This document shows, one piece after another, positions 25,678 to 60,627 of a stretch of 64,000 nucleotides of DNA; within the stretch, counting starts at the first letter, position 1; each line of letters begins with the position of its first letter. The notes under the pieces are model-generated. The model was not told the origin of the DNA and ran no database searches. It saw only the letters and a program-made list of their open reading frames with translations. Made by a program: the position numbers and the translations under genes. Source of the DNA: Candidatus Parcubacteria bacterium (GTDB lineage: Bacteria; Patescibacteriota; Minisyncoccia; Phycocordibacterales; UBA918); the NCBI GenBank assembly GCA_046050355.1, contig JBJOPW010000001.1, positions 67,858 through 131,857 on the forward strand, given 5' to 3'.

Positions 25678-25682
25678 AACAA

Positions 25683-28969: not shown

Positions 28970-29120
28970 GAGACGTGGACTGGGCCATTAGGTGAGAAAA
29001 CGTGGGACGTTTTCGCAAGACTCATTGCGTAATTTTATGAGTGGTAACGAAATAAAATTGCCAATGAGTAGACAGTTTCTGTAAGAAATAGGCCCAGCTC
29101 ACGGAAATTCGCAATAGTCG
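28970..29120. ncRNA. Candidate structured RNA, tandem unit 2
   Basis: Helices 28994..29002/29008..29016 (GAGAAAACG/CGTTTTCGC), 29020..29027/29062..29069 (ACTCATTG/CAATGAGT) and 29031..29037/29053..29059 (AATTTTA/TAAAATT). These covary with unit 1. A further partial copy of the 3' motif TTCGCAATAGTCGG lies at 29190..29205. Confidence 0.35.
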
Positions 29121-29231
29121 GCGAAGAAGATTCAAGAAACATAGTGATTCGGCCTAGAAAAGACATTAGGAATAGTCTTCTCTAGGTAAGTTCGCAATAG
29201 TCGGCTTGCGCTTCGTTTGCTCACTTAATTT

Positions 29232-30461: not shown

Positions 30462-30577
30462 CTACTTTTCGTAAACATTAGATAACCCCCATGTCAAAAT
30501 GAATATAAATATAGAATAGACAAAGTATTCAGTCACTTTTCAATTTTCCATCTTCACTATTCTATATTTATTTGATG

Positions 30578-31900: not shown

Positions 31901-32256
31901 ACGTAGCTACATTATGACACAGCATAACAATTGAAGACGTCTCTCATATCCCCATTACCAAATCAAAACAAATAAGATGTGTGATTTGTTTCAGCATGAG
32001 TCTGCTAGGATTTACAAACTTGATGCAGTTCGAGGCGGACGAGTAAAATTTTGTGAGGCGTATTAAATATACGTTTAATAAAATTTTATGAAGTCCAACA
32101 AAGAAATGCGCTAGTTTGGAGATTCTAGTTGGTAATGTTCTTAACCCAACCAAAAAGTAAAACAACAACCGTGAGGTTGTATGATTTTACTTTGTTCCAA
32201 CTTTCTATTCCTAATGAAAGTTCTGGAACCTTTTGGTGGATTAAGATATAACTAAT

Positions 32257-33732: not shown

Positions 33733-33750
33733 AGGTAGTATACCATCACG

Positions 33751-51700: not shown

Positions 51701-54700
51701 TTAGTGTTACTACAAGACACCACCATCGCGTCACCGGAGACACTTTCATAGCCCACGGCAATACCCTTGCGCGTGACATTCGAAACAGTGCTCGTAATCA
51801 GTGTCTGATTACCCCACGAACTGCTCGTGGCATTGTACACCTGCGCATACGTCGCATTAGATTGGTCCATCGTCACGAGAATGTATTCATCCCGCTTTAC
51901 TCCAGCAGCTGTACGGACCCAGTTAATAGTACCGCCGACCGCAATCGCCGACTGCTCAATCCCCCAGCTCGTACCATTCCAGAGGCGATACCGTGGGGTG
52001 GTGTTGGTACCATCACCATAAGCCAACATAATCTCAGAACTCACCGTTGAGTTTACAGTGACATTATTATTCACATCATTGGCCGTCGCGCCAAAGAGCG
52101 TATTCGTTTGGAATTGTCCACTGGTAGTTTGGTACCAGTTTGCAACGGTATCTCCTGCATTAACAGTAAAGCTTTGTGTTGTTGAATAATCACCAAAGCC
52201 ACCTGAACCAGTAACGTCTTTCGCGCGGACCCGCCAATAGTATGTCGTTAGGTCTGTGAGTGTGTCACCTGGTTGTAACTGATAGCGGATTTTATTGCCT
52301 TCGGTAAATGGCGCAGTGTCACCACCACTCACGGTGTTTACAAATCCTGCATCGGCACTAGAAACTCGCACGGTAGCAGTCGCAAAGGTTGAGGAGGTAG
52401 AAATTGAGAACTCGTATTCAATATCAGAAGCTCCGTCCGGGTCACTCGCGGTAAATTCAAAATACGGTGACGTTGAAGCAAACCGGGCATTATCAAATGG
52501 AGTTTGTAATGTTGGTGCTGCCGGGCGGAAATCAAGCGCAGCTTTTTTCCATAGCATGAGGGTAGCTGGAGTAGTAGAGCTTACCTGACCAGCCGTTGCT
52601 TCTTGCTGACTTTGCACTGACACGATCTGTCCCGCGCCAACCCCCTCAAGCAAGAAGACGAGATTGCCTGACGCATCAGTGTGTCCGTTTTGGTTACGAA
52701 TGTAGTTTGATTTGGTTTGGGCACCCGTTGTCGTCGCCCCATTAACTGTTACGGTAATACGATTGTTCGTACGAGCAGTAGCACCAGTCACGGCCACGTT
52801 GTACATGAGGAAATAGTCACCACTTTGACCAACCGTAATCTGATGACTGTTAGTGGTTGATGAATAGGTATAGGTACCGGTATCGTGTGCCAATGGTACA
52901 TTGAAGCGTGTTGAGGAAGCGTTTGTGTTATTGAAGTTCATTCCCGTCGTACCGTTGAAGTAGTTACCAGTGACGGCAATCACACCCGCAGTTGGTAACT
53001 TTTCAATCACAATCGAACCAGCAAAGCCTGGTGTCACAACGACGTTCCCGCCACCGGCTTCTTGTTGTGCTGTTACGGTGAGCACACTATTTGTACTACT
53101 GGCAACCACCACCCCGGACCAATGAATACTCGAGTCGCCATCACTTTCGGTAGCTGCCGTTTCCATGTACCCCTGCATAAATTGCGCACCTGGCACGGCC
53201 ATACCATTGATAAGTACTCGTCCAGTGACGTTTGTCTGCACTGTATGGTTTACTCCCGTAAGTGGAATATTGACATGGACCATGTAGGTACCAGTAGCGG
53301 ACAACGTAATATTTTGTGGCGATACAGTGTTTGAGTGTACAAAGCCGGTGTCTTGTCGAGTCTCAATCCAATCCAATGCGTTGGCCGTGGCAGTGTTGAG
53401 ACTGGTGGTTGCCGTCGATCGAGTGGTTGTGGCCGCAAAGACAATATCGCTACTTGTCATGTACTCAACATACAGTGACGCCAACCCAGATACATTAACG
53501 GTGTCGCCGGCATCAATAGTATTTAAGTTTTCGACAAACACTTCAATGTAGTCATTCGCATTGACATCAGTAAGGAGAAACGCGACGTTTGATGATGACT
53601 CTGATTGTGCACCGGCATTTTCGATATAGCCACTACGCCCAAGACCTTCTTGTACCGCCACGCCGTTTTTACGTACCTCAATACCCGAACGAGTGCGACT
53701 CGTGTTGGCATCGGTTCGTTGTACTGGCAAGTTTACTGCGACAAAGTAATCACCACTTTGACGGAGGGTTACTCGCTGTGAGTTTGATGAAGTTGAGTGA
53801 GTATAGTAGTAGTTATCAATTGAACTCGTCGACCACTGCATCGGACTAGGTACACTGTTGAGGTTCGTTCCAGCAACGGTCCGCGTACCCTTAAACCACC
53901 CGATGTTGTTAAGCGCATCAGACGCAATCTGCCACTGCCTCAGCTCTGAGAAGCTGTCCATAGTGAGTGGCCCAAGGAGATACATATAAGGACTAACATC
54001 AGGCGCATCAAAGGTATACGAGAAGGTACGTTCGTCGCCGACATTCATTGTCACGTTTGACCAGGTTATAAGACTATACTGTGGTAGTGCCGTAATCGTC
54101 GCCCCCTCGAGACCCTCGATGATAAAGCCACGTGGTACTCGCTCGGTGATATCACCGGTGTAGGTACGGTTGGCTTTGACCTTAAGCTCTACCTTATATG
54201 GTGCGGGTGGGTAGATACGGGTAGGTGCCGTACGAGTGATATCAAATGGGATATAGTCACGCACTTCAAAGGAGTCAGTAATCTTGTGTACGACTTCCCC
54301 GCTTACGTTTAGATGTTGTAGCTGAATAGTGTACTTACCCCATTCGCCCGTATCTTTAAAGGTAGCCAGGTAGTCTGGCACATCAGTAACGTTGTTCGCG
54401 TTACACGAACCAGATTGCGACACTGGCACTTCGAAGATTGCTCCCTTTGGATCGATAATCTTCATCTCTAAGTTCGCATCACAAATCGTGTCGCCACTAT
54501 CAGTCAAGGCAGCGAGATTGAGCACTACTTCCTCGTTCGGGAAGTACATGCTCTTCTTGGTGTTTACAGCCAAAAGCCCCCAGTAGAATTCAAAAGTGTC
54601 GGTGAACTTTTCACCATTTTCAAGTACCTCAACGGTCACTTCGTACTTTCCTGGTGCGAGCGTATACGGCAGTTCTTCAACTTGCATTGACCAGGTGAGG

Positions 54701-56121
54701 TCATCGTAGTATTTGATATCAAACAGGGCTGGAATCTCAGTCCCGTCGGGATTCTTGATACTCACCCGATCCACGGCAAAGGTATTCTCAGCAAAGATAG
54801 AACGGAAGATGCGATTGAAGAAACCTTGCTGTGGATCGTACGACAAGGTAAACATCGGTGACTTACCAAGAACTTGGTCCAAGTCAGCATTCACAAGTTC
54901 ATTGAGACTTGGTGCCTTCAGATCTCGTTCGTAGCCAATGGCATCGGTTGGCTTTTCAAAGTCTGATGATTCGTAAAAGCGTCCTGAGGTCACATCAAGC
55001 CATACACCATCAACAAAGACAGCTTCGGTCTCAGCTTCAATGCCTTCGTAGGCGACTTTGACCCGAAGGTTTGAGAGGTCATTACTGTATGGCGAAACAG
55101 CGAGGGCCACGAGGAAGTGGTCACCATTAAGGCTATTTGAAATCTCACCACCAACGTCAATCACGGTACCAGGGAGATACGTCGCACCCGCATCAAGTGA
55201 GTATGACACGACGAAACGCTGGATAGCACTACCAGGTTTCGCTTTGGCCGCTAGTGAGAGTCGTAGTTGTACCGTATCTAGTACCGTGCCGTTGGTGAAC
55301 TCAGGCAACGCAAAATTATCAAAGGTCAGCGACCGAGTTTTACAGCCAGCTTCGACGAGACAAGGTTCCAGGCCAAAGAGGTCAGTGGTGGTAGTACCAA
55401 CTGCAGCAGGTGATTCAGGAGTACTCGTCGTAGCCCCATCGCTAATAGTCTCAGAGGCGTCACTTGGTGAGTCACTTGCTTCCGTTGGCGTTGCTGTCGT
55501 TACCTCAGGTATCTCTGGAGTAGATGCTTCGTTTGGCGCAGAAGCTGGTTCTATGTCAGGCGCAGTTGTATCTGGTGCTACTTCCTCAACCACCGGCACC
55601 GCATCGGTGACCGGAGTCGTTTCATCAAATTGTGCGAGTGGATAGGCTACCGCCCGCATGGATGTCTCAAGCGGCGTATCACTCGGCACTGGTTCGGTTG
55701 GTGGTGTTGATTCAGTTGATGGCTCGGTAGCTGGAGTTTCAGCTGGTGGAGTATCAGTAGTAGCACCGTCTGAAGCAGCTCCATCATCTGGCGTACCGGT
55801 TGGCGGATTTTCAGTTGGCACAGCAGGAGATGGCGTTTGTGATTGTGTTGGTTCTACGTACTTGAAGTGTGCAGAATTGGCATTGGTGAAGTTTTGTAAG
55901 ATACCATCACCATCAACATCTTGAATCAAAACCTCATTCGGATTATCAAAGCCATCTGCCACTACACCTCCTGGTACAACCAGCAATTCTTCGGTCGTAT
56001 AGACCGTTCGGTCAATGTACGAGTACGCCAAAAAGCCACTGATACAGACAAATACCAGCAGAACCCGCAGAGTAAGGCGGTTTAGCTTAGGAATTACATG
56101 CGACACAACTCTAACGCCCAA
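33751..56121 (-). CDS. Giant (7456 aa, 22.4 kb) cell-surface protein: N-terminal TM anchor, Pro/Thr-rich stalk, three DUF2341-like plus LamG/concanavalin-like pairs, long right-handed beta-helix-type repeat arrays, FN3-like triplet, W.G..W propeller-like segments, Gly-rich stretches
   Basis: Single uninterrupted ORF on the minus strand. TTG at 56121 is the first in-frame start (GTG at codon 6 is an alternative). DUF2341-like units: WGRRIKIEVDN...DIRITTSDGITEVPYE...FYIYYGNSG, WSARKKITIQG...DIRITASDGVTEVPLE...FYVYYGNSG and WSNRQRVRIEN...DLRFTRIDGVTPLDFW...FAYFGNAS. Two of these are followed by LamG-like DGVNDYLTN...WNNV(S/T)TAET...GRIDEFR(I/L)ASV. Internal ~900-aa tandem duplications are visible at the protein level. 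Confidence 0.8.
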   Translation of the reverse strand: MGVRVVSHVIPKLNRLTLRVLLVFVCISGFLAYSYIDRTVYTTEELLVVPGGVVADGFDNPNEVLIQDVDGDGILQNFTNANSAHFKYVEPTQSQTPSPAVPTENPPTGTPDDGAASDGATTDTPPAETPATEPSTESTPPTEPVPSDTPLETSMRAVAYPLAQFDETTPVTDAVPVVEEVAPDTTAPDIEPASAPNEASTPEIPEVTTATPTEASDSPSDASETISDGATTSTPESPAAVGTTTTDLFGLEPCLVEAGCKTRSLTFDNFALPEFTNGTVLDTVQLRLSLAAKAKPGSAIQRFVVSYSLDAGATYLPGTVIDVGGEISNSLNGDHFLVALAVSPYSNDLSNLRVKVAYEGIEAETEAVFVDGVWLDVTSGRFYESSDFEKPTDAIGYERDLKAPSLNELVNADLDQVLGKSPMFTLSYDPQQGFFNRIFRSIFAENTFAVDRVSIKNPDGTEIPALFDIKYYDDLTWSMQVEELPYTLAPGKYEVTVEVLENGEKFTDTFEFYWGLLAVNTKKSMYFPNEEVVLNLAALTDSGDTICDANLEMKIIDPKGAIFEVPVSQSGSCNANNVTDVPDYLATFKDTGEWGKYTIQLQHLNVSGEVVHKITDSFEVRDYIPFDITRTAPTRIYPPAPYKVELKVKANRTYTGDITERVPRGFIIEGLEGATITALPQYSLITWSNVTMNVGDERTFSYTFDAPDVSPYMYLLGPLTMDSFSELRQWQIASDALNNIGWFKGTRTVAGTNLNSVPSPMQWSTSSIDNYYYTHSTSSNSQRVTLRQSGDYFVAVNLPVQRTDANTSRTRSGIEVRKNGVAVQEGLGRSGYIENAGAQSESSSNVAFLLTDVNANDYIEVFVENLNTIDAGDTVNVSGLASLYVEYMTSSDIVFAATTTRSTATTSLNTATANALDWIETRQDTGFVHSNTVSPQNITLSATGTYMVHVNIPLTGVNHTVQTNVTGRVLINGMAVPGAQFMQGYMETAATESDGDSSIHWSGVVVASSTNSVLTVTAQQEAGGGNVVVTPGFAGSIVIEKLPTAGVIAVTGNYFNGTTGMNFNNTNASSTRFNVPLAHDTGTYTYSSTTNSHQITVGQSGDYFLMYNVAVTGATARTNNRITVTVNGATTTGAQTKSNYIRNQNGHTDASGNLVFLLEGVGAGQIVSVQSQQEATAGQVSSTTPATLMLWKKAALDFRPAAPTLQTPFDNARFASTSPYFEFTASDPDGASDIEYEFSISTSSTFATATVRVSSADAGFVNTVSGGDTAPFTEGNKIRYQLQPGDTLTDLTTYYWRVRAKDVTGSGGFGDYSTTQSFTVNAGDTVANWYQTTSGQFQTNTLFGATANDVNNNVTVNSTVSSEIMLAYGDGTNTTPRYRLWNGTSWGIEQSAIAVGGTINWVRTAAGVKRDEYILVTMDQSNATYAQVYNATSSSWGNQTLITSTVSNVTRKGIAVGYESVSGDAMVVSCSNTKDPVYRTWNGSTWSATSSITTSLVNVCNHVEIASDPTSDEMILVVRDSGAAVGNNYEALVWDGTGWISSRVLGSVQAGQELRAGIGVKYESSGDQAVIAVTNGTNNNFAYVTWLGPSLGWSSNGTQALFNDFEFGSLAADPNSDLMTLCFINDSARVGAIRWDGSVWTGTFTDFTITGNSQAGRPVDCEYETTAGRSGYILGTYSDTTNLRYRTFATSTWDAQQTVSGVGSGAGVFWVQTERAGDGTIVAISHDDAVAGDEIESTYWNGTNWSTKQSIVPNPSSIIGAPYETFEMAAKRYTFTQGIVTTQPIVFTSVPNQNTWGDLSFGSTEPFGTDVTVKLKYTNTTTCDTYIPDGALPGNSTGFDQSAMPLNLTSLSTSTYSQICLEATLTTFGSQSASLDDWSVAWLRKPKLVQSNFRWYANGSFFTPTDAWPVGGTDVNENVALSSAEAVSLNDVLRLRLSLQGANVPLATSTSAFKLQYAPGSSCSIATGWSDVGAVGSTTALWRGYANSIVGSDWYGAAWGRRIKIEVDNALVGTSSAVTDFPVYVNLDDLPAVFFDTVQSDGDDIRITTSDGITEVPYELVAIDTSADTGELHFKAPSLSTTTDTGFYIYYGNSGASGYAATATYGRNNVWNNGYQAVYHLGTNPTSAMIDSTSNGRNLTSSGMVATNSTSSKIGNGLNFDGVNDYLTNTGWSWNTATVTVTAWNNVSTAETQNSNLFSFTAAGAERFAAHAPWGDAVLYWDFGTCCSAPGRLTTNYTSYRNKWTHVGLVSHGTGGTFMGIYLDGAPIATAATSDNPNVALTGFALGSVSTAGGTYHRGRIDEFRIASVARSASWLKTEYNNQTNATGFYTVQAEELIGDGRVLPSTLLSDSNFSETYEENNPTILNRNGLLVGQKTEWDFTLQNNGATANTSYCFRLVYADGAILNTYSTYPRLITNAAPLQPTLTAPFDNRQLASTTPTFEFAAIDELGDLVSYEVVIDNDADFSSPTITRESNADFSQFTNIASPSERSQYSSGQTIQFVPNTGLTNGVTYWWRVRAKDDFGSNTYGSWSEPRSFTVNSATTLTTWFQTTGDQFNTNSLNDALANVSTNDVGINTSFTAATTTTTEIDYDNRAIGNAWGSISFNQNVTSGTIRHYVEYEVSSNNFALVPDTDLPGNSAGFASSPISIAALDTTTYNVLRITSVFSGNATLPRLLDMTVTWSLKIEPPTHLTLFDNAKTATVTPAFTFTTIDPQADDLQYEIQISTTQDFAAPTTFMSGVDAGFSNVTTPADTSPFNSGNTIRYQTQAPLTNSVTYWWRTRARDPGGSNSWSNYSTPFSFTVDTATNVSVWYQTTGEQFSTNDTVDIETTLGGAQVSSVINGVMVAYAEGTAQAPQYRTWNGSAWSAPISADTVSAQIRWTRLKAATTRPEYALGTLGTDLDINIQIYDAITESWGNIFEIVNSATESTKRRYDIAYETVSGKLMAVACLGNDAVYATWDGSSWSATSSLVLANTNDCEWVQMASDPVSNEIIAVFRHTNTGTPDYEALVWNGSSWGNSNRFGDVSANTNEGMVIEYEESGDQAVLALPNGTVNMPWKTWNGSTWSATNTVALGNVMTWGSLKRDEGTDRMMLCYMDADTDIGIVPWTGSAFGTFTELTITGNDNRGLPADCDFQTTQGTDGDVVIAYSDTVAARYQTYSFGTGTTSGEFSLDVINNSWRFQTVRGGDGTVHALAFDDGSNPDRYDTSRWNGSVWTARENFSSSPSIAAQPFDGSLTIAAQIYPNFTSASIRSTAINFADGASPRWERVRFTDTTPGLSNVLYRVYYETTPGTFALVPDSALSGNAAGFTNSPINISGLDKNIYNVLKLDAELLCDSGNCPSVQDWSVEWSEGLTISGSIFDYDQLTALASGTVAVAVNGVLQSGKTAQVAAGTSTQQVVYTAAGTSTFTVPSGVTSVTVKSWGAGGGSGASYSTNGGGAGAGGGGGFVQGNVTTIPAENLTVRVGGGGAGGTAATSTGGGGGGGYSGVFRTSTPLLVAGGGGGGGGGVTNIKYVGAGTACGVNGAACTPTIPASTAVNDLYIAVLHSRTDTAHTCTTNCTGWTEFSTQAGSAGEGRVSVWYYRRTGAAPANPTFAGPATESYTGRIWAFRGAAITGNPYDVLGTNTAVTVANTVFTGSNLSSTVPDAMVVHVGGSMDNNTWGPGGGSCNTPNAADANFYAANANGTDNSVFLCYRDNPISSAGSLGAPTMTQATLGADVGRYFTFALRPQATDGLVLGNGGAGGGLTGETGSTTAASGGGGGGTQVAGGAIGGSNATVGAAYQGGLGAGTAGGVGAGGAGGIGGGGTGGSGSTTAILAGGGGGGAGYYGGGGGANASDFYTHNPGAGGGGGSSYTALTGVSATSTISGSGTQAANTADPDYSAGVGVGAAAVTSITNGSSGGNGKVVVTWSTVASAGTWSIPNVSAVAGDVITVFIQNASGTDEAVAVTVYDGSGDITGMQLSKRHLTIGSNDGTTVTNANLALYANAANEDIFYSASGGSTISLCAESTCSDARLRVLSGATYAPGADTSVINFQNNGTFAPATSTFRISNVWDNQSTFTVGQSTIIFTATTSTQTPQNASSSLAFYNVTFGESSGNATFTLTKPLITYGNLTVNYGTLARGTTTLNIGGNLSLGANGTFSGLGTTTFDGTGSSLWGDAKAANLSTNIGNVVIDGTAKTITLSGNVGSESLTIGNDDTLNASGSGFNINVLRHWTNNNAFVPQSGTVSFIGTSTGVIARGTSAFNNLSFTGVGGNWSFSTSTLALNGTLTIATGTVTLPTGTTTIGGSFLNTGGQFAHNNGEVRMTSSVAGRSITTSGTPFLNNFYDLVFTGAGGWTFTGAATTTRDMRITAGTVTMPTTTLAVGGDFVTTGSGAFAHNNGEVILLVQDADTLSTNGSSFNNLRVRGAASGWYNDSWSARKKITIQGSKVMGSMTNFPVYLNLADLGDDFFTGITTGGADIRITASDGVTEVPLEVVSVSTSTKRGEVYFRAPSLATSTSADFYVYYGNSGATAYASTSAFGAQNVWTNGYQAVYHLDSDPAGITVDSTRFDRRLSQVGAMDATDVVAGVLGNAIDFDGVNDYLTNAAFAWVNASNTITVTAWNNVTTAETKAANLFGFTESGGQRVATHGPWSDAILYWDFGAAGVPGRVSSSYASYRNKWTHIGLVSPGAGGGNMSIYFDGAFITSSTASDPNVTLTGFSLGSLGASQYHDGRIDEFRLASVVRDAGWLGTEFNNQSTSTSFYSTSTAEARFARVFTDTNTTILGNYIADAGASATFPSGILSVGGSFDNNGAFSANNGTVRFNSTAGSETIAVGSSTFATLEFNGAGGDFTVTESATATVAINLTNATQFTLQSGLSLTASGTFSQTMSGTSTTWTGSLLRFIGTDHSMHTKSFGGDVYGTLQVANDADIAMWNSSATTYITSDTGSIYSQDHAAVDGDLNIYGNYIRSTGTEHWAYATDFDGTVLGSPRQVDVRVASGSSVGFTAASLNFTGTSSASTTIAALTGSFSLNATNSIVTARYFSVASTGSAGFGLLSSTTLSQFDDGYIDVTPGTSGLRIDGTTVSTNPAKQLLRVAFATTTAGTGANVTFTGTSTSFVWFKEGSGNLYGEAFDSGDANPGAIRFDDSSYLITVSGRVLTSDGGASLGAPVCDGVTPNVRVVVNSGSYTAQTSCNVTTGAYSFSNVAFIGDPKITVYLNTNGGVSGAAVTKTPTSDITNLDVYAYQLITRHEGAVPLSIADLTLFDTASDTDMRFSATTTPSTSLTVLSNNGLFVWASTTFTPGGPVTLAGNASSSAFEGSLTLATSSQFIAAGTDTHSLAGRLVVGQNATITAASSTFVFTATTTGKSITAATTQNFHNLSFTGVGGAWNIGAPLSLTGDMTISAGTVTGTNNISLLNGQLTGNGTLSLGSGTTTISRTNTLGGTTPWTFANLVLGNGSVAGTTTPASAATTTVSGRLTISAAHVYDVGSSPINLTGSGTVFSVSGTYRPGTGLVTYSGANATVLGTTYYDLAVGASVGSSTFTTSGVGILVNRNLTIGNGTASSTFTTNQSDPVLTVSGDVFVASASTLSLSDTATTTIAGSIDNNGTVLANGGIAAFTGSGTHTIAMGTSPLARTRINGTGSFTVSESATSTVSFTLQNHALFRVATGTTLALAGTFDNQLGGAATDFPGTLYFYGGSSIAVNQKTTADTYSTLGVASDTRIRLWNSSATTYNALGGIYSQDHNNTNGLLHVYGTFAETSASDYWSYATDFDGTALSGSERVVTVAFASGAAYNLTGGSLSVIGAAGASTSITNQGAGTYGVIIGGSGTANWNYATVRNASTSGIIFTGTPIVTDFSRVDIEVGATGGTGVTIGSTVLNNNPAKNLTNNHFATSTGVSAATNVTATGTAVSSWRFTNHTGSIDGEVYDNDPAGDPGYIVWDDSAALITVSGNVYSDEGVTVSPVCNGVTANIVLRVAGLTTYSTPCNATTGAYSIPNVAFSPADTLTVYIDNNIRKAVTVSADPISSISDMHLYENRVIVRHENTSPLSIADMAVWDSSDDGDILFTAVDAGSDTLSLPADQKLLIWTSKTFEPNGNVTLSGGGGGGAQDGTLEALANATWRAQGNETHSIAGSIIFGAGAVFTAGQSTTTLTTTGAGRTIDVNSGAFYNLYITGSGSWTVADSALTTTRSYTQSAGTVTFGSGTTTIGASFNATGGSFSMPGTGIAFVSSSTGNIVRFDDAMVPALYFTGAGGAWSMTDTNATTTGSFIISNTGTVTLPSGALAVGGSFTNASGTVTHNTADLYMTSASAASITTRGSDLFALRKTDVGTINITDASATFRDDVVIASGSLVAATNTLSVGGSFLVTGGTFSHASGTVLFNATASGKTINASTSPFYNVQFASASGGWTWQGNATTTNNLTLTTASAFTKEAGTSLSIGGVFTNLVGGGATTWTNTIISLTNSAPYTINTKTTGGDDYATLSINVADLRLWNSSVATTTTGAGASLYSQDHGVVDGALNIYGDFTVATTSEYWSYATDFDGTALTGTERAVTVRINENATTTVQSGTLSIIGGLSASTTIGNISTGTHAFIVTGGTFNAQYYRFNALNSTGLNFINTPTITNLSNGYYNLALNGGTLITLADTALNANASKIFTAVGFNAGNSWNGTNTALVGSTSNAWRFSGSYGNIGGEAFDSDGVDACGSIRFDDSGCLLTSQTSYRWRADDGGEGAPNSEWYNLSWSNRQRVRIENITATTFSTTTVKIVVPYDSAMQSDFDDLRFTRIDGVTPLDFWLDRYTASTEAVVWVEVPSLAANAYTDVFAYFGNASSTSSSSAAATFSFSDDFEDNNITEYSGDTTLFQTDTAPVFGGSYALEALNKSGRTTDGIFRTGSLTAQGQVIRYRQYVDTTTGSADEGCALFGVQTPGTNNNNYAVCLELFGTDRLSLSKNVTDNDVSGTRLASTTVTFATGWYLVEIDWQTSNRIDVYLYNAAGSIVASTTATDSSYTSGGMGFTFWVQNGAWDSYQVSGRGPINPGISFGAKQTAGGASWVAAENTLGSGLPNVTRRLRIGIENSGLDVTGQTYRLQYAAKGGAPSCEAVSSGSFAAVPNQASCGSSPVCMQVSSNVTDGEATTDLLTTSNGQFSAGAVVESPSTMTSGLSVNQDRYTELEYVITPTNNASDNYCFRVVNGSTPIDYYAKVAELGLQFDPVIGTVNLNDGFDIALLPGTTTRIYATTTITDFNGASDIKMATTTFYKTASGTSSCTPDDNNCYRVDTSNQCNLQCTGNNCNLICYADIQFFATPSDDGAAEWFAFTEVIDNSGGYDFADSLAVELLTVRSLSINSGINYGSLAPQADTGSYNATTTIANAGNVPFDIEVEGTDLSDGASSVIPANKQKFATSTFTYSGCAVCSLLSSSTPVALDVNLSKPTVPTPPVTTDIFWGIEVPFGVNSAPHSGINVFTPVSP

Positions 56122-56136
56122 AAGATAACTTTTGGG
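56117..56136 (-). promoter_or_regulatory. Perfect 8-bp stem hairpin (CCCAAAAG-ATAA-CTTTTGGG) overlapping the candidate TTG start of the giant gene
   Basis: Seen directly. It overlaps 56119..56121 (the TTG start) and the would-be ribosome-binding region, so it could sequester the translation initiation region. Confidence 0.3.
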
Positions 56137-56146
56137 TTACCTATAG

Positions 56147-56181
56147 TATAACGCGCCAGTACTCGGTACTGGCGCGTTATA
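56147..56181. promoter_or_regulatory. Perfect 16-bp-arm palindrome (TATAACGCGCCAGTAC-TCG-GTACTGGCGCGTTATA) in the 89-bp spacer between the cohesin-like gene and the giant gene
   Basis: Seen directly. 26 to 60 nt upstream of the giant ORF start and 30 nt after the upstream stop. No U-tract follows on the minus strand, so it is not a canonical intrinsic terminator. Candidate operator or RNA processing/stability stem. Confidence 0.4.
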
Positions 56182-56210
56182 CGAATTTTATTGTGGATTG
56201 TTTGTGCTCA

Positions 56211-57755
56211 TTAGCGCAAAATCGTCTTTACGTCATTGATTTCTTTTTCAATCAAGGTCTCAGATACTTCGAGCGCTTGGTTGAGACCCTCCACCGCTTC
56301 TTTTTCTTTCTTAGAGAGCCGTGGACGCTTCGTGATGAGGTTGATCTGATCGTAGATCTCATCACGCAAGGCGGAGAAGATTTTTTCCATTTGATCCTGA
56401 ATTTCGCGAGTTTCGCGACGGAGTTTGTCTTCGCGCAGTTTGTTCTGCTTCCGATCGTACCAAATGTAGATAAACTGCATCAAGATTGTTACCAGGAGGA
56501 GCGCAGTAAAGATATTCCTTCCGGTAAAGTAGTCCCAAATGGTGGTTTCTATCTCTACTTCGGCCGGTTTAATCCATCCAGCCGTAATCTGCACTGCTAC
56601 ACTTGATTCTTTACTGTTACCAGCCTTGTCGTAAGCCACTACCGTGACAGTGTAGGTACCGTCCTCGAGTTCCTTGAGGAGGTAACCGATTTTTGCTTCA
56701 TCCGGAGTGACTTTGATCGGTTCGTTGTCGGCAATGGTCATCTCATAGTAATCGATGCCAGATGTCGTATCGTTCGCAGCAAAGTTAAGCTGCGGGAACC
56801 CGGTTGGTGAATTTGAGACCCGAACATCAATGGTGAAGTTTTCTGGTTCGGTAGTATCAATCATGATTTTGCGATTGAGTACCGCACCCCAGCCCACCTG
56901 ATTCTTATATTTGATACTCAAGTACTGGATACCTTCAATCGCATTTTCCTTATTGAGCGCAAACTCTTTAATTGGAGGATTTGCGATCGCTGACTTAGTT
57001 AGCTCAGGCTGGTTCTCCGATGAAGTCGCAAGCATGACAGCGAGCTCATTGACATCAAATGGTATTTCCCATTCAAATAAGCCATCAGTAGTGGCGTACC
57101 AAACCTCTGGATCAAGGAAGGTTTTTGAACCAACCTCTGGCGCCCGTGGCGGATCGCCAAACACGATGGCCTCATCCCCTCCTTCTTCTTCATCTTCTGC
57201 CGCTGGGGTTGTTGGTTCAGGGGTTGGCGTAGGGGTTGGTGTTGGCGTAGTAGCCGCTGCAACTGTAAAGGAGCCATTAGTACTCTTACTGTAGACATCA
57301 GTACCACGACCATCAGCCGCCAGCACCGACGCATTGGAGACCGTGAGGGCGCCCGTCCCCGCCGCTACTGCTCGGAACGTGACACTGACAAGATTTGACT
57401 GGGCCGTAAATGGAGATGGGCTACCACCACCAAAAGTAATAGTTCCGGCACTATTTGAGTAGGTCGGTTCAGTAGTCCAGAGTGAGAACACTGATCCTGT
57501 CTTACTGACATTTACTACGGCGAGCACCGCAGGATCAAACTTAAGGGTAGCCTCAACCGCATTGACACTCTGACCACCGGGCGATACCCGCACCGACACC
57601 GTAAAAGTCTGCCCCGGTGTGTAGCTACCCGTACTCGGTGCAATCACCACATCAGCCGCGAAAGCCACTGTAGCAAACCAGACAAAAAGCCCAAACACCC
57701 CCACAAGGGTCAGGAGTTTGTATAACGTGGTGAGTATGTGTGTGCGTGAGAACAT
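56211..57755 (-). CDS. Type-I membrane surface protein with a cohesin-like module, TM and a cytoplasmic coiled-coil tail (paralog of 19478..21226)
   Basis: Signal peptide. TFTVSVRVSPGGQSVNAVEATLKFDPAVLAVVNVSKTGSVFSLWTTEPTYSNSAGTITFGGGSPSPF. (TP)n linker TPTPTPTPTPEPTTP. TM LLLVTILMQFIYIWY and a charged helical tail. Confidence 0.65.
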   Translation of the reverse strand: MFSRTHILTTLYKLLTLVGVFGLFVWFATVAFAADVVIAPSTGSYTPGQTFTVSVRVSPGGQSVNAVEATLKFDPAVLAVVNVSKTGSVFSLWTTEPTYSNSAGTITFGGGSPSPFTAQSNLVSVTFRAVAAGTGALTVSNASVLAADGRGTDVYSKSTNGSFTVAAATTPTPTPTPTPEPTTPAAEDEEEGGDEAIVFGDPPRAPEVGSKTFLDPEVWYATTDGLFEWEIPFDVNELAVMLATSSENQPELTKSAIANPPIKEFALNKENAIEGIQYLSIKYKNQVGWGAVLNRKIMIDTTEPENFTIDVRVSNSPTGFPQLNFAANDTTSGIDYYEMTIADNEPIKVTPDEAKIGYLLKELEDGTYTVTVVAYDKAGNSKESSVAVQITAGWIKPAEVEIETTIWDYFTGRNIFTALLLVTILMQFIYIWYDRKQNKLREDKLRRETREIQDQMEKIFSALRDEIYDQINLITKRPRLSKKEKEAVEGLNQALEVSETLIEKEINDVKTILR

Positions 57756-57780
57756 AAGAACTATCTGAATTACTACTAAA

Positions 57781-58242
57781 CTATTTTGGCCTGGTCTTAT
57801 CGGCAGTGATTTTGAGCTTGACTCGCTCTTTCTCCTCCGGCTTTAAGAGTGGCAGTATTAAAATGAGTACACCGTTTTTTATCTTTGCCTCGGCCTTTTC
57901 AATATCAACACTCTCAGGCAAGATTATCCGTCGATAAAAATCACCCCAGACACATTCTTCAGTAAAATACGAACCACGCGGTTTACTTTTAGGAAAGACA
58001 ATAAATTCCGGTCGAATGCGGCGACCTTCGATGAGGACGATATCGGCATCCCCTTCAATCGAGACGTGGACATCATTCATATCAGCACCAGCTGACTGCG
58101 CATAGATGACAATCGTCCGTTCCGTCTGATAGACATCAACATCAAGCTGCGCCACTTTGTCGACAGCAGTCTCTTCCTCACTAGACTGCAGAGTCTGGTC
58201 AGAACGAACACCTCTCCCTTTGAGACGTTGTAAAAATGACAT
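57781..58242 (-). CDS. Hsp20/alpha-crystallin family small heat-shock protein
   Basis: 153 aa. Alpha-crystallin domain DVDVYQTERTIVIYAQSAGADMNDVHVSIEGD...LPESVDIEKAEAKIKNGVLILILP. Confidence 0.8.
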   Translation of the reverse strand: MSFLQRLKGRGVRSDQTLQSSEEETAVDKVAQLDVDVYQTERTIVIYAQSAGADMNDVHVSIEGDADIVLIEGRRIRPEFIVFPKSKPRGSYFTEECVWGDFYRRIILPESVDIEKAEAKIKNGVLILILPLLKPEEKERVKLKITADKTRPK

Positions 58243-58294
58243 ACCAATTCCTCTACATTATATATGTGTCAGCCTATCATGATGTAACGTTACC
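58243..58294 (-). promoter_or_regulatory. Putative sigma70-type promoter, RBS and a 10-bp palindrome for the Hsp20 gene
   Basis: Minus-strand reading gives TTACAT (plus 58283..58288), 17 nt, TATATAAT (plus 58258..58265), then GAGGAA about 7 nt before the ATG (58240..58242). A perfect palindrome GTAACGTTAC at 58285..58294 overlaps the -35. Confidence 0.35.
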
Positions 58295-58587
58295 CACAGT
58301 AAGTTTTATATAGAAGATAGAAGATTGAATACGGAATATACAATATACGAGACAAAGACAGGCACTGCCTCTTTACACTATTCAATGTTATCAGTTCAAT
58401 CTTCCCTAGAATTTTAACTTAAAACTTTGAAAGAAAATTTTCTCAGACGAGGCGCACAAAGAAGAAAAGCGAAGGGGAGTTAAATAAGGAGCTTTTCTAA
58501 TGTAATAATGAATAAGTGAACAAATTATAAAGCTGGTGGCTCTAGAATAAAATCGTTTATGACAAGGCGTCTGAACGCCAAAGAACG

Positions 58588-58609
58588 AGCCGTATTGCTA
58601 TACGGTGAG
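58588..58609 (-). terminator. Conserved 3'-UTR stem-loop downstream of dockerin gene 58657..60627 (GAGCCGTAT-TGCT-ATACGGTGA); paralog of 24498..24520
   Basis: 6-bp stem CCGTAT/ATACGG. It covaries with the CCGTAC/GTACGG copy. A second hairpin CAAGGCGT-CTGA-ACGCCAAAG lies at 58563..58583. Confidence 0.4.
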
Positions 58610-58656
58610 GATTTCGAGTGAAACACAACACAGTCAGAGGCGATTTTAGTCAGAGC

Positions 58657-60627
58657 CTAGCCGGTCCAGTTGAAGAGGAGAATCGAGAAGTCCGTCAAAT
58701 TCACCTTACCGTCCTGACTAATATCCGCGGGCGGATTGGAGTCGCCACCATCAGTACTCCACCAGAAAAGGAGAATAGAAAAGTCGGTGAGGTTCACCTT
58801 ACCATCACGATTGAGATCAGAATTATTACCCGCTGCTTGTGATGGCCCACCGACTCCATAGAGGGTGTACTGTGAGAAGTTTGATGTCAGTGTACCATCA
58901 ACTGCTCTCGCACGTACTTTGTAGGTGCCATTACTAAATCCACTGGTATCCACTGGTGTTGACCACGCCCCACTACTATTAGCGGTAACGGTGTATGACT
59001 TGCGTGACGCGGTGTTTTTGTCCTTTTCATTCTCAATGGTAACCTGAGCATTCGGGAAAGTATAGCCAGAAATCGTCAATGCTTGTCCGGGATTAACTGG
59101 ATTCGGTGAAACCAGAATCGAAGGCGGAATATTGATATTACTGAGAGCAGATTCACGAGCTCCGGCCACGGTAAAGGAAGTACTGAAGGTTGAAGACTTC
59201 GTCCCCGCTTGATCGGTGGCATAGATGCCAAAGGTGTATGCACCCCGAGCGATTTTGTCCACGGTGGCAGTATACGAACCATCATTGGTAGCGTTGGCAG
59301 TTACCGCTGCTTTGCCGTCAACGAGCACCGTTATCTTTGCTCGTGGCGAAGCATAACCAGTGATCACCACTTGTCCATCACCACTACGGTACGGACCCGG
59401 AGCTGATTCGAATCCCCCGCCCCCGCCCCCGCCACTAGCGCCGCCACTACCACCCCCACCGCCACCGCCACTGCCGCCACCAGAACTACCTGAAGTACTA
59501 CCACCACCGGTAGCCGGTCCACCACTATTACCACTACCGGAACCACTTCCAGTGCCCCCATTACCGGTACCAGTACCTGAGCCGCTACCATTACCATTTT
59601 CGGTTGAGCTACCGGTCGGCTGGTTGCTCACGAAGAAGCTAATAAGGTAGTCGTCGGGGTTAGTGTTACCTTCATCATCACGGCACCGCACGTAAAAATC
59701 TTGTTGAGAATTGGGTGTCACCGCCACCACCTGAGAATGGAAGAGGAGGCCTGAGTTAGAGAAGACAGCGGACATAGTGTTGTAATCAGCGCCTGGACTG
59801 CGCGCAAAACGACAAAACGCAAACTCATCAGTTTCGAGACTAATCTCTACATTTAAGGTCGTGCCACCAACGGTCGAGGTAGGCTGACCATTAAACCGAA
59901 ATGGGGGAATGGCTTCCGTCGTATCGACGGGGGCGACACCGACTTGATCAACAAGGGCAATCAAAAAACCAGCATTGCCAATCTCGCTAGCGGTATTATC
60001 AAAAATACGCATAGCTACTTCATGAGTACCAACCGTTGATCCATTAGTAATGCCAGGAATATCTGCCGGGGTGGTAGTAGTGCCGGTTGTGGTACTAAAA
60101 CTCGTACCGCCGGTTTGTGCGAGTGTCGTATGATTACCGATTTTTAACTCGAGCAAACTACCCGCTGCAATTCCTGTGGTTTGGTTGAGACGATACCGGA
60201 TGAGCCCCGGCGTACCCGGGACAATATCAACCTTATCATCACTTGCCGATACGACTGAACCAACCTCACGTCGCACACCGTTGACTCGTAACTCGACATT
60301 ACGGAGCTCGGAAAACTGGGCACTGCCCGCGACTGTAAAGTCTGTTGGTGGTGTAATCTCTAGATAGCCCTCAGGTGGTATACCCGTATCAACCAAACGA
60401 AAAGACAAGGTATGATTTGCAGCCCTTGTCGGCGCTGACTGCGAAATAGTGTCTTTGTACTCCTTCACATTACGAGCAAACGAAAATTGTGGCGATACAA
60501 ACAAAAAACCAATGAAGCCAAGCCACAAAGTCAAAGCAATGACCAGACGCAACGGTCTCGTGATATGCATAGGTATATTGTACCTTGTGAGGATGAACAA
60601 AATGGGTGTTCTCCCACAGTTAAACAA
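58657..60627 (-). CDS. Membrane-anchored surface protein: beta-sandwich domains, long Gly/Ser-rich linker, Ig-like domain, C-terminal tandem dockerin
   Basis: N-terminal TM (LVIALTLWLGFIGFLFV). The ~70-aa linker GSGSGTGTGNGGTGSGSGSGNSGG...GGGGGGG. Ig-like domain YTATVDKIARGAYTFGIYATDQAGTKSS. C-terminus DLNRDGKVNLTDFSILLFWW...DISQDGKVNLTDFSILLFNWTG is nearly identical to the 24571 protein at both protein and nucleotide level. Confidence 0.75.
   Translation of the reverse strand: MFNCGRTPILFILTRYNIPMHITRPLRLVIALTLWLGFIGFLFVSPQFSFARNVKEYKDTISQSAPTRAANHTLSFRLVDTGIPPEGYLEITPPTDFTVAGSAQFSELRNVELRVNGVRREVGSVVSASDDKVDIVPGTPGLIRYRLNQTTGIAAGSLLELKIGNHTTLAQTGGTSFSTTTGTTTTPADIPGITNGSTVGTHEVAMRIFDNTASEIGNAGFLIALVDQVGVAPVDTTEAIPPFRFNGQPTSTVGGTTLNVEISLETDEFAFCRFARSPGADYNTMSAVFSNSGLLFHSQVVAVTPNSQQDFYVRCRDDEGNTNPDDYLISFFVSNQPTGSSTENGNGSGSGTGTGNGGTGSGSGSGNSGGPATGGGSTSGSSGGGSGGGGGGGSGGASGGGGGGGFESAPGPYRSGDGQVVITGYASPRAKITVLVDGKAAVTANATNDGSYTATVDKIARGAYTFGIYATDQAGTKSSTFSTSFTVAGARESALSNINIPPSILVSPNPVNPGQALTISGYTFPNAQVTIENEKDKNTASRKSYTVTANSSGAWSTPVDTSGFSNGTYKVRARAVDGTLTSNFSQYTLYGVGGPSQAAGNNSDLNRDGKVNLTDFSILLFWWSTDGGDSNPPADISQDGKVNLTDFSILLFNWTG

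Follow-up and report, generated by a model that had tools for sequence, protein, structure and literature searches.

The 64,000-nt window analyzed here is derived from a Parcubacteria/Paceibacteria genome and encodes two cohesin-like proteins and two dockerin proteins, which raised the question of whether one cohesin–dockerin gene pair is a copy of the other and what the pairs may do at the cell surface. Cohesin–dockerin gene pairs occur twice (pairs A and B) inside a conserved cell-surface gene cluster of this ultra-small Parcubacteria bacterium. The cluster covers 50 kb or more (10174..60570 as a minimum), and the pairs are anciently duplicated. Our preferred reading, to which we assign a probability of about 0.7, combines two anciently diverged paralogous modules, a separate repeat at stop codons and a putative docking of dockerin to cohesin that tethers secreted proteins to the membrane.

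Domain order of the cohesin and dockerin proteins

Both open reading frames of pair B were confirmed on the minus strand, on which the other cohesin, dockerin, surface-protein and Hsp20 genes and the repeat copies described below also lie. Cohesin B (56211..57755; 514 aa, identical to NCBI RLZZ360_99) is a predicted type-I membrane protein with a signal peptide (residues 1-32), a cohesin module (33-166), a disordered, Pro/Thr- and acid-rich linker (~167-200), two Ig/FN3-like domains (~201-392), a TM helix (~412-432) and a cytoplasmic coiled-coil tail (433-514). It scored 41.7 bits against Pfam Cohesin PF00963 (E 1.6e-10; gathering score 24.1 bits), and the best Foldseek matches of its AF2 model (mean pLDDT 83) in the PDB were type I cohesins (6kgf_C, E 1.3e-10, TM 0.75). 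Cohesin A (19478..21193, ~571 aa), also of type I, comprises a signal peptide, cohesin, Ig-like domains, a TM helix and a coiled-coil tail, and matched Pfam Cohesin (35.7 bits) and Big_13; it differs from cohesin B by one extra Big_13 region. Its maximal ORF extends to 21226, but since NCBI-called orthologues are 571 aa long, the start is probably at 21193; the JGI call for the present genome is 547 aa (P0121). A start at 21193 would abolish the overlap with 21195..22328.

The two cohesin proteins shared 35% identity over 428 aa in BLASTP (E 4e-58), with a second segment over the TM helix and tail (24%, E 3e-9). As originally predicted, the exact string LWTTEPTYSNSAGTI[T/N]F is present in each; in both, one signal-like segment lies at the N-terminus, and a charged, helical tail follows a single C-terminal TM segment (hydropathy, AF2). 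Between the paralogues, the cohesin module is best conserved (50%), and within family B it is the cytoplasmic tail (89% mean identity).

Dockerin B (58657..60570) is a secreted protein of 637 aa. Its maximal ORF reaches 60627, but the start was set at 60570 because the genome's database annotation (P0241) gives 637 aa. A signal peptide is followed by the conserved N-terminal motif DTISxSAPxxxxNHTLSF, a beta-rich region (35-320), a Gly/Ser-rich, disordered linker (321-395), two to three Ig-like domains (398-573) and the dockerin. Pfam assigned Dockerin_1 (PF00404; 32.5 bits, gathering score 22.9 bits), Big_6 and Big_13, and the alignment to the C. thermocellum CelS dockerin (2mte/1daq) spanned both Ca2+ loops. 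The AF2 model and Foldseek indicated chains of Ig-like domains; pLDDT was low (30-50) within the dockerin. Dockerin A (24571..25677; 368 aa, secreted) contains a signal peptide, a Cys-rich DUF4215/myxo-type repeat, a Gly-rich linker, Ig-like domains and a C-terminal two-repeat dockerin. It matched Big_7, DUF4215 and NCBIfam TIGR02232, and scored 22.4 bits for Dockerin_1, i.e., 0.5 below the gathering score, with both Ca2+-loop motifs present. Dockerins A and B were 42% identical over the C-terminal 247 aa (E 2e-53). They share the Gly-rich linker, Ig-like domains and a canonical two-repeat C-terminal dockerin, whereas their Ig-like domains differ by Pfam (Big_7 vs Big_6/Big_13).

Two further proteins carry related modules. 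The adaptor-like protein 18038..18793 (251 aa) combines a signal peptide, a cohesin-like module and a C-terminal dockerin; it matched cohesin B (BLASTP, E 9.5e-11) and both dockerins (42-44%), and its dockerin scored 22.8 bits, 0.1 below the Dockerin_1 gathering score, with both Ca2+ loops present. The third cohesin-like protein, 21195..22328 (377 aa), is anchored by a C-terminal TM segment, has the variant motif IWVEQP...TISFAGG and is 35% identical to cohesin A over 147 aa (E 1.4e-18). At E<0.01, Pfam returned no match for 21195..22328 and no Cohesin match for the cohesin-like module of 18038..18793. A motif scan found two DxNxDGxVxxxD-type loops in each of the three dockerins. The dockerin proteins have a signal segment only (hydropathy, AF2) and no enzyme or binding domain recognisable by Pfam or NCBIfam.

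Judged from this ordered, full-length domain correspondence, the two cohesin genes are true paralogues, and so are the two dockerin genes. Thus, the predicted paralogy and the domain names held, the latter by Pfam, the Foldseek matches and the CelS alignment, whereas "close" paralogy did not fit identities of just 35% and 42%.

Putative docking at the membrane

In the preferred reading, the membrane partner (19478..21193, 56211..57755) would present its cohesin at the membrane-distal N-terminus on top of Ig/FN3 domains, with a TM helix below them and a strongly conserved coiled coil in the cytoplasm. The secreted partner (24571..25677, 58657..60570) would be exported by Sec, carry Ig-like domains and end in a canonical two-repeat EF-hand-type dockerin. 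After export, the dockerin would bind Ca2+, fold and plug into the cohesin, and the secreted Ig-rich protein would thereby be tethered non-covalently to the cytoplasmic membrane. The adaptor-like protein, with its cohesin and dockerin, and the third cohesin anchor could permit branching, and the assembly may be part of a surface apparatus including the neighboring 7456-aa and 2053-aa proteins. We infer the cohesin–dockerin binding, its Ca2+ dependence, the pairing of partners and any link to the giant proteins.

The giant protein (33751..56121, 7456 aa) is encoded directly downstream of cohesin B and has an N-terminal hydrophobic segment. A regex scan found no dockerin or cohesin motif in it; its orthologues carry Laminin_G_3 and DUF2341, and two locus A proteins, of 2053 and 625 aa, share segments with it (BLASTP). 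The 2053-aa protein (10174..16335), whose gene closes locus A on the downstream side, is partly paralogous to the giant protein (BLASTP segments at 29-41% identity), and its length is kept in L003 and L004 (2051-2053 aa). An Hsp20/alpha-crystallin gene (57781..58242; Pfam HSP20, E 2.2e-10) lies between dockerin B and cohesin B, and does so wherever the interval was readable (L001, L002, L006, L007, L009); in L005, it is directly upstream of cohesin B. Matches to Hsp20 in ten relatives showed 77-98% identity, with four of them truncated by the end of the locus. A passive-anchor model does not account for such extreme conservation of the cytoplasmic tail and of the neighboring Hsp20.

Alternatively, the cohesin-like proteins might not be dockerin receptors but membrane-anchored parts that assemble or anchor a CPR Pam-type pilus built by donor-strand exchange (analogues of PamR/PamC/PamD), with the dockerins having another Ca2+-dependent role. 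We regard this as unlikely, albeit the most credible alternative. The chaperones and anchor of the Pam system are Ig/FnIII proteins whose TM helix is C-terminal (bioRxiv 10.64898/2026.03.03.709456), and 25683..26729 and 9181..10167 each encode beta-rich domains between a signal peptide and a C-terminal TM segment. In addition, the C-terminal region of a secreted 402-aa protein (22335..23543, minus strand) weakly matched NCBIfam NF058581 CPR_Pam_pilin_C (E 3.5e-5), but with 23.9 bits against a cut-off of 55 and over 37 of 148 profile positions. The Pam paper (bioRxiv 10.64898/2026.03.03.709456) contains neither cohesin nor dockerin nor Paceibacteria. Moreover, the N-terminal modules score above the Pfam threshold for Cohesin, and the solved structures that they match are cohesins rather than PapD-like chaperones, and the cohesin B and dockerin B genes were neighbors in 6/6 genomes examined. 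The pilus and docking models are not mutually exclusive. The 402-aa protein and dockerin B are also similar at their N-termini (BLASTP, E 5e-7), where the motif SDTLSDSAPSVPSNHTISF is confined to these two proteins; the C-terminus of the former resembles that of the 2053-aa protein.

A hairpin repeat at stop codons

The DNA likeness of the two dockerin genes had been predicted to continue into the 3' UTR. A match past both stop codons does exist, but it amounts to 49% identity over ~120 nt with a few conserved blocks, and it is not specific to the two dockerin genes. Covariance-model (CM) searches found four copies of this repeat in the window, in two subfamilies. Subfamily 1 includes 58540..58659, which opens with the TAG stop of dockerin B (CM R1 125, R2 91.7 bits; folding z-score -4.3), and 3185..3306, which starts at the TAG stop of an FKBP gene (3304..3849; R1 82.7, R2 78.2 bits). 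The latter copy is unrelated to dockerin genes. Subfamily 2 includes 24455..24573, starting at the dockerin A TAG stop (R1 104.7, R2 82.5 bits), and 32009..32127 in the spacer between an fn3 and an ABC ATPase gene (R1 59.9, R2 71.8 bits), which begins ~130 nt past the fn3 stop codon where no long ORF ends.

Rfam contained no match for the repeat. Metagenome contigs yielded 113 CM matches in 120 loci, several with two to three copies. Covariation was strong: paired cells made up 92%, and 223 cells showed double changes as compared to 50 in shuffles (0/500). For 57 of 98 copies, an ORF of 80 codons or more on the same strand stopped within -9 to +12 nt of the repeat's 5' end, as compared to 6/98 on the antisense side. 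The repeat is an imperfect, dispersed hairpin that sits preferentially where the preceding gene stops, in sense orientation. Its occupancy varies: the site 3' of dockerin B is empty in L001, L002, L006, L007 and L008 and occupied in L009, while the site after dockerin A holds subfamily 1 in L003/L105, subfamily 2 in L096 and none in L004. The likeness downstream of the two dockerin stops has nothing to do with gene duplication; it represents two copies of the dispersed repeat.

Age of the duplication and comparison with cellulosomes

The family search covered three of the four genes (cohesin A, cohesin B and dockerin B), and each has its own large orthologue family, with identities of 49-89%, 63-89% and ~55-84%, respectively; dockerin A orthologues are present in L003, L004, L096 and L105. 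Identities in alignment A5 were bimodal, with 63-89% vs 29-34%, the latter across families. Both loci were syntenic in all relatives examined. The order dockerin B, Hsp20, cohesin B, giant gene is kept in L001, L002, L006, L007 and L009, that of locus A is wholly kept in L003 and L004, and two other genomes carry both loci on one contig in the same gene order (L001+L004; L003+L007). Dockerin DNA identities were 74-84% (A-A), 69-88% (B-B) and 62-77% (A-B), and the distance matrix grouped dockerins by type, not by genome. These comparisons suggest that the duplication had taken place before the sampled Paceibacteria lineages diverged.

The dockerin ends had been called near-identical. This was overstated, the last 56 codons being 82% identical in protein and 77% in DNA; their strong likeness probably reflects purifying selection rather than recent copying. 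Ectopic conversion of the dockerin 3' ends, carrying downstream sequence between the loci, could produce such likeness, and we consider it improbable. It would fit the excess of identical codons in the last 56 codons (27/43 vs 16.3 expected from codon usage, P ~5e-4), the identity of the final ~20 nt of the CDS and the presence of the locus B repeat in the window and L009 only, the locus A repeat being found in several genomes. However, type-specific residues are kept among orthologues (DLSRDG, ILIF and DINSNGKVGLED in dockerin A; DLNRDG, ILLF and DISQDGKVNLTD in dockerin B), and third-position identity between dockerins A and B within the window (61%) did not exceed that between dockerin A of the window and dockerin B of L009 (61%). 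Since the downstream repeats belong to different subfamilies, neither was copied from the other. The codon identity beyond what protein conservation predicts leaves room for a degree of constraint at the nucleotide level or for a conversion in the distant past.

The originally predicted duplication of the two-gene module onto both sides of the giant gene, read as a recent segmental event, would account for the same domain order, the near-identical dockerin protein sequences and some likeness past the stop codon, but it is refuted by the separate orthologue families and the conserved synteny, and is further contradicted by the low identities and by the dispersed repeat. In addition, the pairs are differently spaced: the Hsp20 gene splits pair B, and ~3.3 kb with three other genes splits pair A.

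Cohesin and dockerin are the defining modules of cellulosomes, and the best PDB matches were cellulosomal, yet a cellulosome-like complex of extracellular enzymes degrading polysaccharides is highly implausible, since none of the three dockerin proteins had a glycoside hydrolase, a CBM or any further catalytic domain by Pfam or NCBIfam. A cellulosome scaffoldin carries multiple cohesins, whereas each cohesin protein here has a single one and neither SLH nor sortase anchors. The type I cohesins matched by the AF2 cohesin model include the non-cellulosomal A. fulgidus cohesin 2xdh, and the docking proposed here is most likely a non-cellulosomal variant of the known interaction.

Cohesin and dockerin paralogues of the two loci

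All cohesin and dockerin genes in question are carried by the minus strand. The 514-aa product of 56211..57755 (cohesin B; gene RLZZ360_99 of a 'Candidatus Parcubacteria bacterium' MAG) and the 582-aa product of the maximal ORF 19478..21226 (cohesin A) shared 35% identity over 428 residues (E 4e-58), and a further segment, comprising TM helix and tail, aligned at 24% (E 3e-9). The length of NCBI orthologues of cohesin A (571 aa) suggests a start at 21193, while the JGI call for the same genome was 547 aa. The exact string LWTTEPTYSNSAGTI[T/N]F was common to both proteins, each possessed one N-terminal and one C-terminal hydrophobic segment, and both scored above the gathering score (24.1) of the Pfam family Cohesin PF00963, with 41.7 bits for cohesin B and 35.7 bits for cohesin A. 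The cohesin module was their best-conserved part (50%), which fits similar cohesin surfaces being recognised by both dockerin types.

An AlphaFold2 model of cohesin B was computed from an 80-sequence alignment (mean pLDDT 83). Residues 33-166 formed a beta-sandwich (pLDDT ~80-94), followed by a disordered linker, two more beta-sandwich domains, a long helix from residue 412 with the TM segment and a second helix reaching the C-terminus. The top 16 Foldseek PDB matches were type I cohesins (target TM 0.66-0.77), the best being 6kgf_C (E 1.3e-10, target TM 0.75); the non-cellulosomal Archaeoglobus fulgidus cohesin 2xdh and the Clostridium perfringens GH33 cohesin 2vo8 were also among the matches. 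The predicted structure agrees with the nine-stranded jelly-roll beta-sandwich fold of the Cohesin domain. All-against-all BLASTP and motif scans revealed four cohesin-like modules in the window, at 56211, 19478, 21195 and 18038. The first three proteins carry a C-terminal TM segment, and the module at 18038 is fused to a dockerin instead. The Pfam search returned no match for the modules of 21195..22328 and 18038..18793, which are linked to cohesins A and B by BLASTP only.

The dockerin genes behaved similarly. The maximal ORF 58657..60627 (dockerin B; 656 aa, with the start probably at 60570 and 637 aa according to annotated starts) and 24571..25677 (dockerin A; 368 aa) were 42% identical over the C-terminal 247 residues (E 2e-53), and each encodes a Gly-rich linker, Ig-like domains and a terminal dockerin. 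Type I dockerins are built from a tandem pair of segments in which an EF-hand-like Ca2+ loop (D-x-[NDS]-x-[DN]-G-x-[IV]-x3-D) is followed by a helix, and this arrangement was found here: the motif scan detected two Ca2+ loops in each of the three dockerins of the window, namely DLNRDGKVNLTDF and DISQDGKVNLTDF in dockerin B, DLSRDGKVNLTDF and DINSNGKVGLEDF in dockerin A, and DVNADGKVSLDDI and DFNNDGAMTFKDF in 18038..18793. Dockerin B aligned with the C. thermocellum CelS dockerin (1daq/2mte) over both loops. With Pfam PF00404 (gathering 22.9 bits), dockerin B scored 32.5, and dockerin A (22.4) and 18038 (22.8) fell marginally below; most dockerin B orthologues carry PF00404 in precomputed Pfam. 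The AlphaFold2 model of dockerin B showed a chain of Ig-like domains, predicted with confidence and interrupted by a disordered Gly/Ser linker; confidence was low for the dockerin itself. The structural neighbours of the model were Ig-repeat S-layer proteins and adhesins with low TM scores. The two halves of the dockerin are nearly identical, a feature that goes with a dual binding mode in known systems. Thus, BLASTP, Pfam and motif scans agreed with the original prediction as to the shared motif, the cohesin architecture and the layout of Gly-rich linker, Ig-like domain and dockerin.

The closeness assumed for the paralogues had to be revised. The genes had been described as close paralogues produced by duplication of a two-component module; identities of 35% (cohesins) and 42% (dockerins) do not agree with closeness. 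Orthologue families were searched for three of the four genes, and each was populous and near-constant in length, with identities of 63-89% for cohesin B, 49-89% for cohesin A and ~55-84% for dockerin B. In a joint alignment, identity to cohesin B was bimodal (63-89% within its family, 29-34% to family A). Gene order was compared in loci from relatives' contigs (numbered with L). The order ABC transporter, dockerin B, Hsp20, cohesin B and giant gene (33751..56121) was found in L001, L002 and L006, the order dockerin B, Hsp20 and cohesin B was kept in L007 and L009, and the complete order of the cohesin A/dockerin A locus was kept in L003 and L004; the pairs L001/L004 and L003/L007 each lay on a single contig. 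Because the families are separate and gene order is conserved, the A and B modules must have split before the sampled Paceibacteria lineages. A recent segmental duplication is ruled out by the low identities, by the synteny of both loci in relatives and by the nature of the shared flank, which is a dispersed repeat. The paralogy proposed for the module therefore stands, the recent segmental event does not, and the cohesin/dockerin paralogy is real but ancient, inside a conserved Paceibacteria surface-protein cluster.

One of the syntenic loci, L009 (CAYSNO010000025.1), is labelled 'uncultured Candidatus Saccharibacteria bacterium'. Its dockerin B/Hsp20/cohesin B locus was 85-98% identical to that of the Parcubacteria window, so the label or binning is probably wrong.

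Recent gene conversion, which would make the dockerins alike within one genome, was considered as the main explanation for their similarity. The last 56 codons of dockerins A and B in the window were 82% identical at the protein level and 77% at the DNA level, and 27 of 43 codons were identical compared to 16.3 expected from codon usage (P about 5e-4); some nucleotide-level constraint or old exchange is therefore possible. Despite this excess, conversion was rejected as the main explanation, since 12 dockerins from seven genomes grouped by type (DNA identity 74-84% for A-A, 69-88% for B-B and 62-77% for A-B) with no same-genome effect: third-position identity was 61% for the same-genome A-B pair and also 61% for a cross-genome A-B pair. 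Type-specific residues of A and B were retained among orthologues, and the 12-sequence comparison gave no signal of recent within-genome conversion.

A dispersed hairpin repeat behind the dockerin genes

Nucleotide identity extending from the dockerin genes into their 3' flanks had been taken as a sign of duplication. The regions downstream of dockerins A and B did share conserved blocks (folding z about -4.3), and these blocks proved to belong to a repeat of ~120 nt. Four copies were found in the window, all on the minus strand: 58540..58659 behind dockerin B, 24455..24573 behind dockerin A and, detected with a covariance model, 3185..3306, which starts at the TAG codon terminating an FKBP gene, and 32009..32127 in an fn3/ABC spacer. 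This covariance model had been built from four copies, to which the latter two were additional, and the window hits were reproduced with a second model. The copies behind the two dockerin genes were 49% identical and belong to different subfamilies. At the dockerin B site, the repeat was present in the window and L009 and missing in L001, L002, L006, L007 and L008; at the dockerin A site, it was present in the window, L003, L096 and L105 and missing in L004; the window and L096 share one subfamily there, and L003 and L105 share the other. The covariance model also detected a copy behind an MgtE-like gene in L007. One pattern scan of metagenome contigs yielded 120 loci (L013-L132) with 113 model hits, several short loci having 2-3 copies; of these loci, only L096 and L105 were clearly orthologous to window sites. 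The shared 3' flank is thus a dispersed, probably mobile, hairpin repeat and carries no information on gene duplication. In practice, short 3' flanks shared between genes of such genomes should not be read as evidence of gene duplication.

The position of the repeat relative to genes was strongly biased. Among 98 near-full copies, 57 had the stop codon of a same-strand ORF (at least 80 codons) at -9..+12 nt of the repeat 5' end, compared to six with the mirror-image placement. The stop codon coincided with repeat bases 1-3 in 21 copies, and TAA occupied bases 10-12 in nine. The repeat ends are complementary and variable in sequence, while the conserved core is internal (CTTTGTTG; CGTA-loop-TACGCCTC; N19; CGCCTYG). 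In 67 aligned copies, 92% of cells were paired (23-58% in slid controls), compensatory changes occurred in 19 of 26 pairs, and double-change cells numbered 223 compared to ~50 in shuffles (0/500), figures that lean towards structure as the alignment was fitted to the model. A U-G pair was invariant in 64 of 66 sequences and marks the structured strand.

Known classes were considered for the repeat. An intrinsic terminator of the canonical kind was rejected: the scan flagged only an internal hairpin at 58590-58605 behind dockerin B and nothing behind dockerin A, and the U-rich stretch of the repeat is paired inside helix 1. Integron attC sites are likewise stop-codon-proximal, oriented imperfect palindromes, but this reading was dropped: the genes on either side are chromosomal, conserved and syntenic, the conservation of the repeat lies in its interior, and the ends lack RYYYAAC/GTTRRRY. 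Rfam gave no match at gathering in the whole window or in five metagenome loci; the sole match at E<=10 was rli28, on the opposite strand (E 0.55). Of the marks of MITE/REP-type elements, multiple copies, terminal inverted repeats and presence/absence polymorphism at orthologous sites were found. Many copies have TA(G/A)...(C/T)TA termini, and the flanks of filled and empty sites were too diverged to define a target-site duplication. No mobilising enzyme was identified for the repeat; the window does contain an IS200-like Y1 transposase ORF (1214..1849, plus strand; Pfam Y1_Tnp E 7.6e-7), but the hairpin repeat at its flanks is another one. This palindrome, AAAGACGAGG-TCTTG-CCTCGTCTTT, occurs around the ORF at 1155-1183, 1705-1729 and 1770-1802, with a fourth copy at 28715-28735, and the arrangement resembles that of RAYT/REP or IS200/IS605.

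Like ERIC/IRU (127 bp, enterobacteria), REP/BIME and MITEs such as Correia, the repeat is an imperfect palindrome of ~120 nt, multi-copy, intergenic, patchy at orthologous sites and situated at gene 3' ends, with its hairpin kept by compensatory changes. Unlike them, it has a conserved internal core with a freely varying terminal helix sequence, a strong orientation bias to the upstream gene, a frequently overlapped stop codon and no Rfam match. The literature searched described no such repeats in CPR, and the family is apparently undescribed. It may act as RNA, stabilising or regulating 3' ends, as DNA in the manner of MITE/REP elements, or in both ways. The stop-codon-abutting repeat is a candidate for a new RNA or mobile-element family.

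Neighbouring genes and a possible surface apparatus

A life attached to host cells is assumed for CPR/Patescibacteria, whose surface machinery is mostly unknown. The cluster in the window, which is widely conserved, pairs membrane-anchored cohesins with Ig-domain proteins that bear a dockerin, and giant surface proteins are encoded next to them. It offers a concrete, testable hypothesis on how Paceibacteria surface structures are built or anchored without the usual SLH or sortase anchors.

The Hsp20 gene beside cohesin B (57781..58242) was 77-98% identical in ten relatives. In the comparison of the 57781..58300 region (L001, L002, L005-L012), five relatives showed 92-98% identity over the full length of the Hsp20 gene, and in these five the flanking surface genes were less conserved (cohesin B 84-89%, dockerin B ~70-84%). 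A conserved motif, CTGTGGGTAAC...TATATAATGT, precedes Hsp20, whose conservation and linkage are unusually tight for a small heat-shock gene. In cohesin B, the most conserved part was the cytoplasmic coiled-coil tail (residues 433-514), with a mean identity of 89% across 45 orthologues compared to 73% for the cohesin module. This conservation points to an intracellular partner, and anchoring by a single TM helix with a conserved cytoplasmic tail of ~80 residues likewise suggests a connection with an intracellular component. Together, Hsp20 and the tail hint at a cytoplasmic partner, for which a passive-anchor model has no explanation.

Further observations concern the spacers and neighbouring genes. 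Cohesin B and the giant gene are separated by an 89-nt spacer from stop to start, and this spacer contains a perfect 17-bp-stem palindrome at 56146..56182 (GTATAACGCGCCAGTAC-TCG-GTACTGGCGCGTTATAC), which may serve there as terminator or attenuator. An HD-domain (YfbR-like) gene, 23826..24419 on the plus strand, is inserted between dockerin A and the pilin-like gene 22335..23543; it is one of two sizeable plus-strand ORFs in the window and the sole one in the surface cluster. With tblastn, the orthologous sites of L003, L004 and L096 gave no match to this gene, which is therefore a lineage-specific insertion. No tRNA genes were present in the window.

Pam pili of CPR form by donor-strand exchange, and both the chaperones and the anchor of the system are TM-anchored; the pili were reported mainly in Saccharimonadia and Microgenomatia, and the 2026 preprint on them does not mention cohesins, dockerins or Paceibacteria (bioRxiv 10.64898/2026.03.03.709456, Troman et al.). 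The Pam system, a surface apparatus specific to CPR, and the window cluster are alike in their Sec-exported Ig-like surface proteins and C-terminal TM helix anchors. The secreted protein 22335..23543 matched the NCBIfam model of the Pam pilin C-domain, NF058581, at 23.9 bits (cut-off 55; profile positions 3-39 of 148), and none of the other cluster proteins matched further Pam models in NCBIfam. The match is below threshold, a lead and not membership in the Pam pilus family, whose pilins carry a truncated Ig acceptor domain at the C-terminus. PDB sequence searches with 22335..23543 and 25683..26729 returned nothing useful. The products of 25683..26729, 9181..10167 and 7566..9275 have a signal peptide, beta-rich domains (with weak WxLIP_PGBD and ASH/PapD-like matches among them) and, in the C-terminal part, a hydrophobic segment that is terminal in 25683, lies ~50 residues before the end in 9181 and is double, ahead of a LytR_C domain, in 7566. 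By analogy, this architecture recalls the TM-anchored PapD-like chaperones PamC/PamD.

Several cluster proteins share segments. BLASTP linked the 2053-aa surface protein 10174..16335 to the giant protein (7456 aa) and to the C-terminus of 22335, and 26723..28600 (625 aa) to the C-terminus of the giant protein. BLASTP and the motif scan matched the N-terminus of dockerin B to that of 22335..23543. After the signal peptide, D-T-[IL]-S-x-S-A-P-x4-N-H-T-[IL]-S-F occurred only in 22335..23543 and 58657..60570, and it was nearly invariant in 60 dockerin B orthologues. The shared motif may act as a donor strand, or it may serve in processing or recognition.

These features allow a joint reading, in which the cohesin-dockerin joints are the membrane attachment of a Paceibacteria-specific, Pam-related filament or giant-adhesin apparatus and the ~120-nt element is an undescribed 3'-end RNA or mobile class; as a whole, we consider it unlikely. 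Under the filament part, the invariant N-terminal strand of dockerin B (DTISxSAPxxxxNHTLSF) may be a filament-capping donor strand, its C-terminal dockerin may plug into the TM-anchored cohesin, and the conserved cytoplasmic coiled coil beside Hsp20 may couple the outside structure to the cytoplasm. Under the element part, the repeat may land on, or supply, the stop codon of the upstream gene.

Comparison with known cohesin-dockerin systems

The ancient paralogues can be compared with several characterised systems. A cellulosome is very unlikely, as Pfam and NCBIfam revealed no catalytic or carbohydrate-binding domain in any dockerin protein and each cohesin protein has a single cohesin. The cohesin fold is the same as in the clostridial cellulosome type I pairs CaCohA2-Doc0917 (6kgf, C. 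acetobutylicum) and C. cellulolyticum 2vn5/2vn6 (Foldseek E 1e-10), and the dockerins have the same two tandem segments of ~22 residues, each with a Ca2+ loop and helix. Sequence identity to solved cohesins was ~10-24%. Unlike in the clostridial systems, there is no multi-cohesin scaffoldin in the window, and the genes belong to a CPR bacterium in which no context for polysaccharide degradation is evident.

In a cultivated Saccharibacterium, an envelope protein with a dockerin domain has been reported to be essential (PMC10633639), and this type of interaction may therefore matter more generally in the radiation. The literature searched contained no description of a cohesin-dockerin system in Parcubacteria.

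In the window, dockerin and cohesin genes are co-located and this arrangement is conserved, an adjacency that supports their putative binding. The export signals and membrane topology of the proteins are predicted. By analogy with what is established for such pairs, Ca2+ would make the dockerins of the secreted Ig-rich proteins fold, and these proteins would dock onto the cohesins at the membrane-distal end of the TM-anchored proteins; the 18038 protein would serve as adaptor. Its cohesin plus dockerin composition (18038..18793) is the architecture of an adaptor scaffoldin. The same logic, a cell-bound cohesin that takes a secreted dockerin, underlies anchoring scaffoldins such as C. thermocellum SdbA/OlpB/Orf2p (via SLH) and R. 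flavefaciens ScaE (via sortase); unlike these, the window proteins are anchored by a TM helix with a cytoplasmic tail and not by SLH or LPXTG.

Many prokaryotes possess non-cellulosomal cohesins and dockerins, and a 2009 survey by Peer et al. reportedly found the modules widely in bacteria and archaea. Like the window system, these modules occur outside cellulolytic organisms, few per genome, in varied proteins or proteins of unknown function. The window differs from them in its large and tight cohesin orthologue families, in the C-terminal TM segment with a conserved cytoplasmic coiled coil, and in the fixed neighbours, i.e., the dockerin protein, Hsp20 and the giant protein. The window system is a non-cellulosomal variant of the cohesin-dockerin system.
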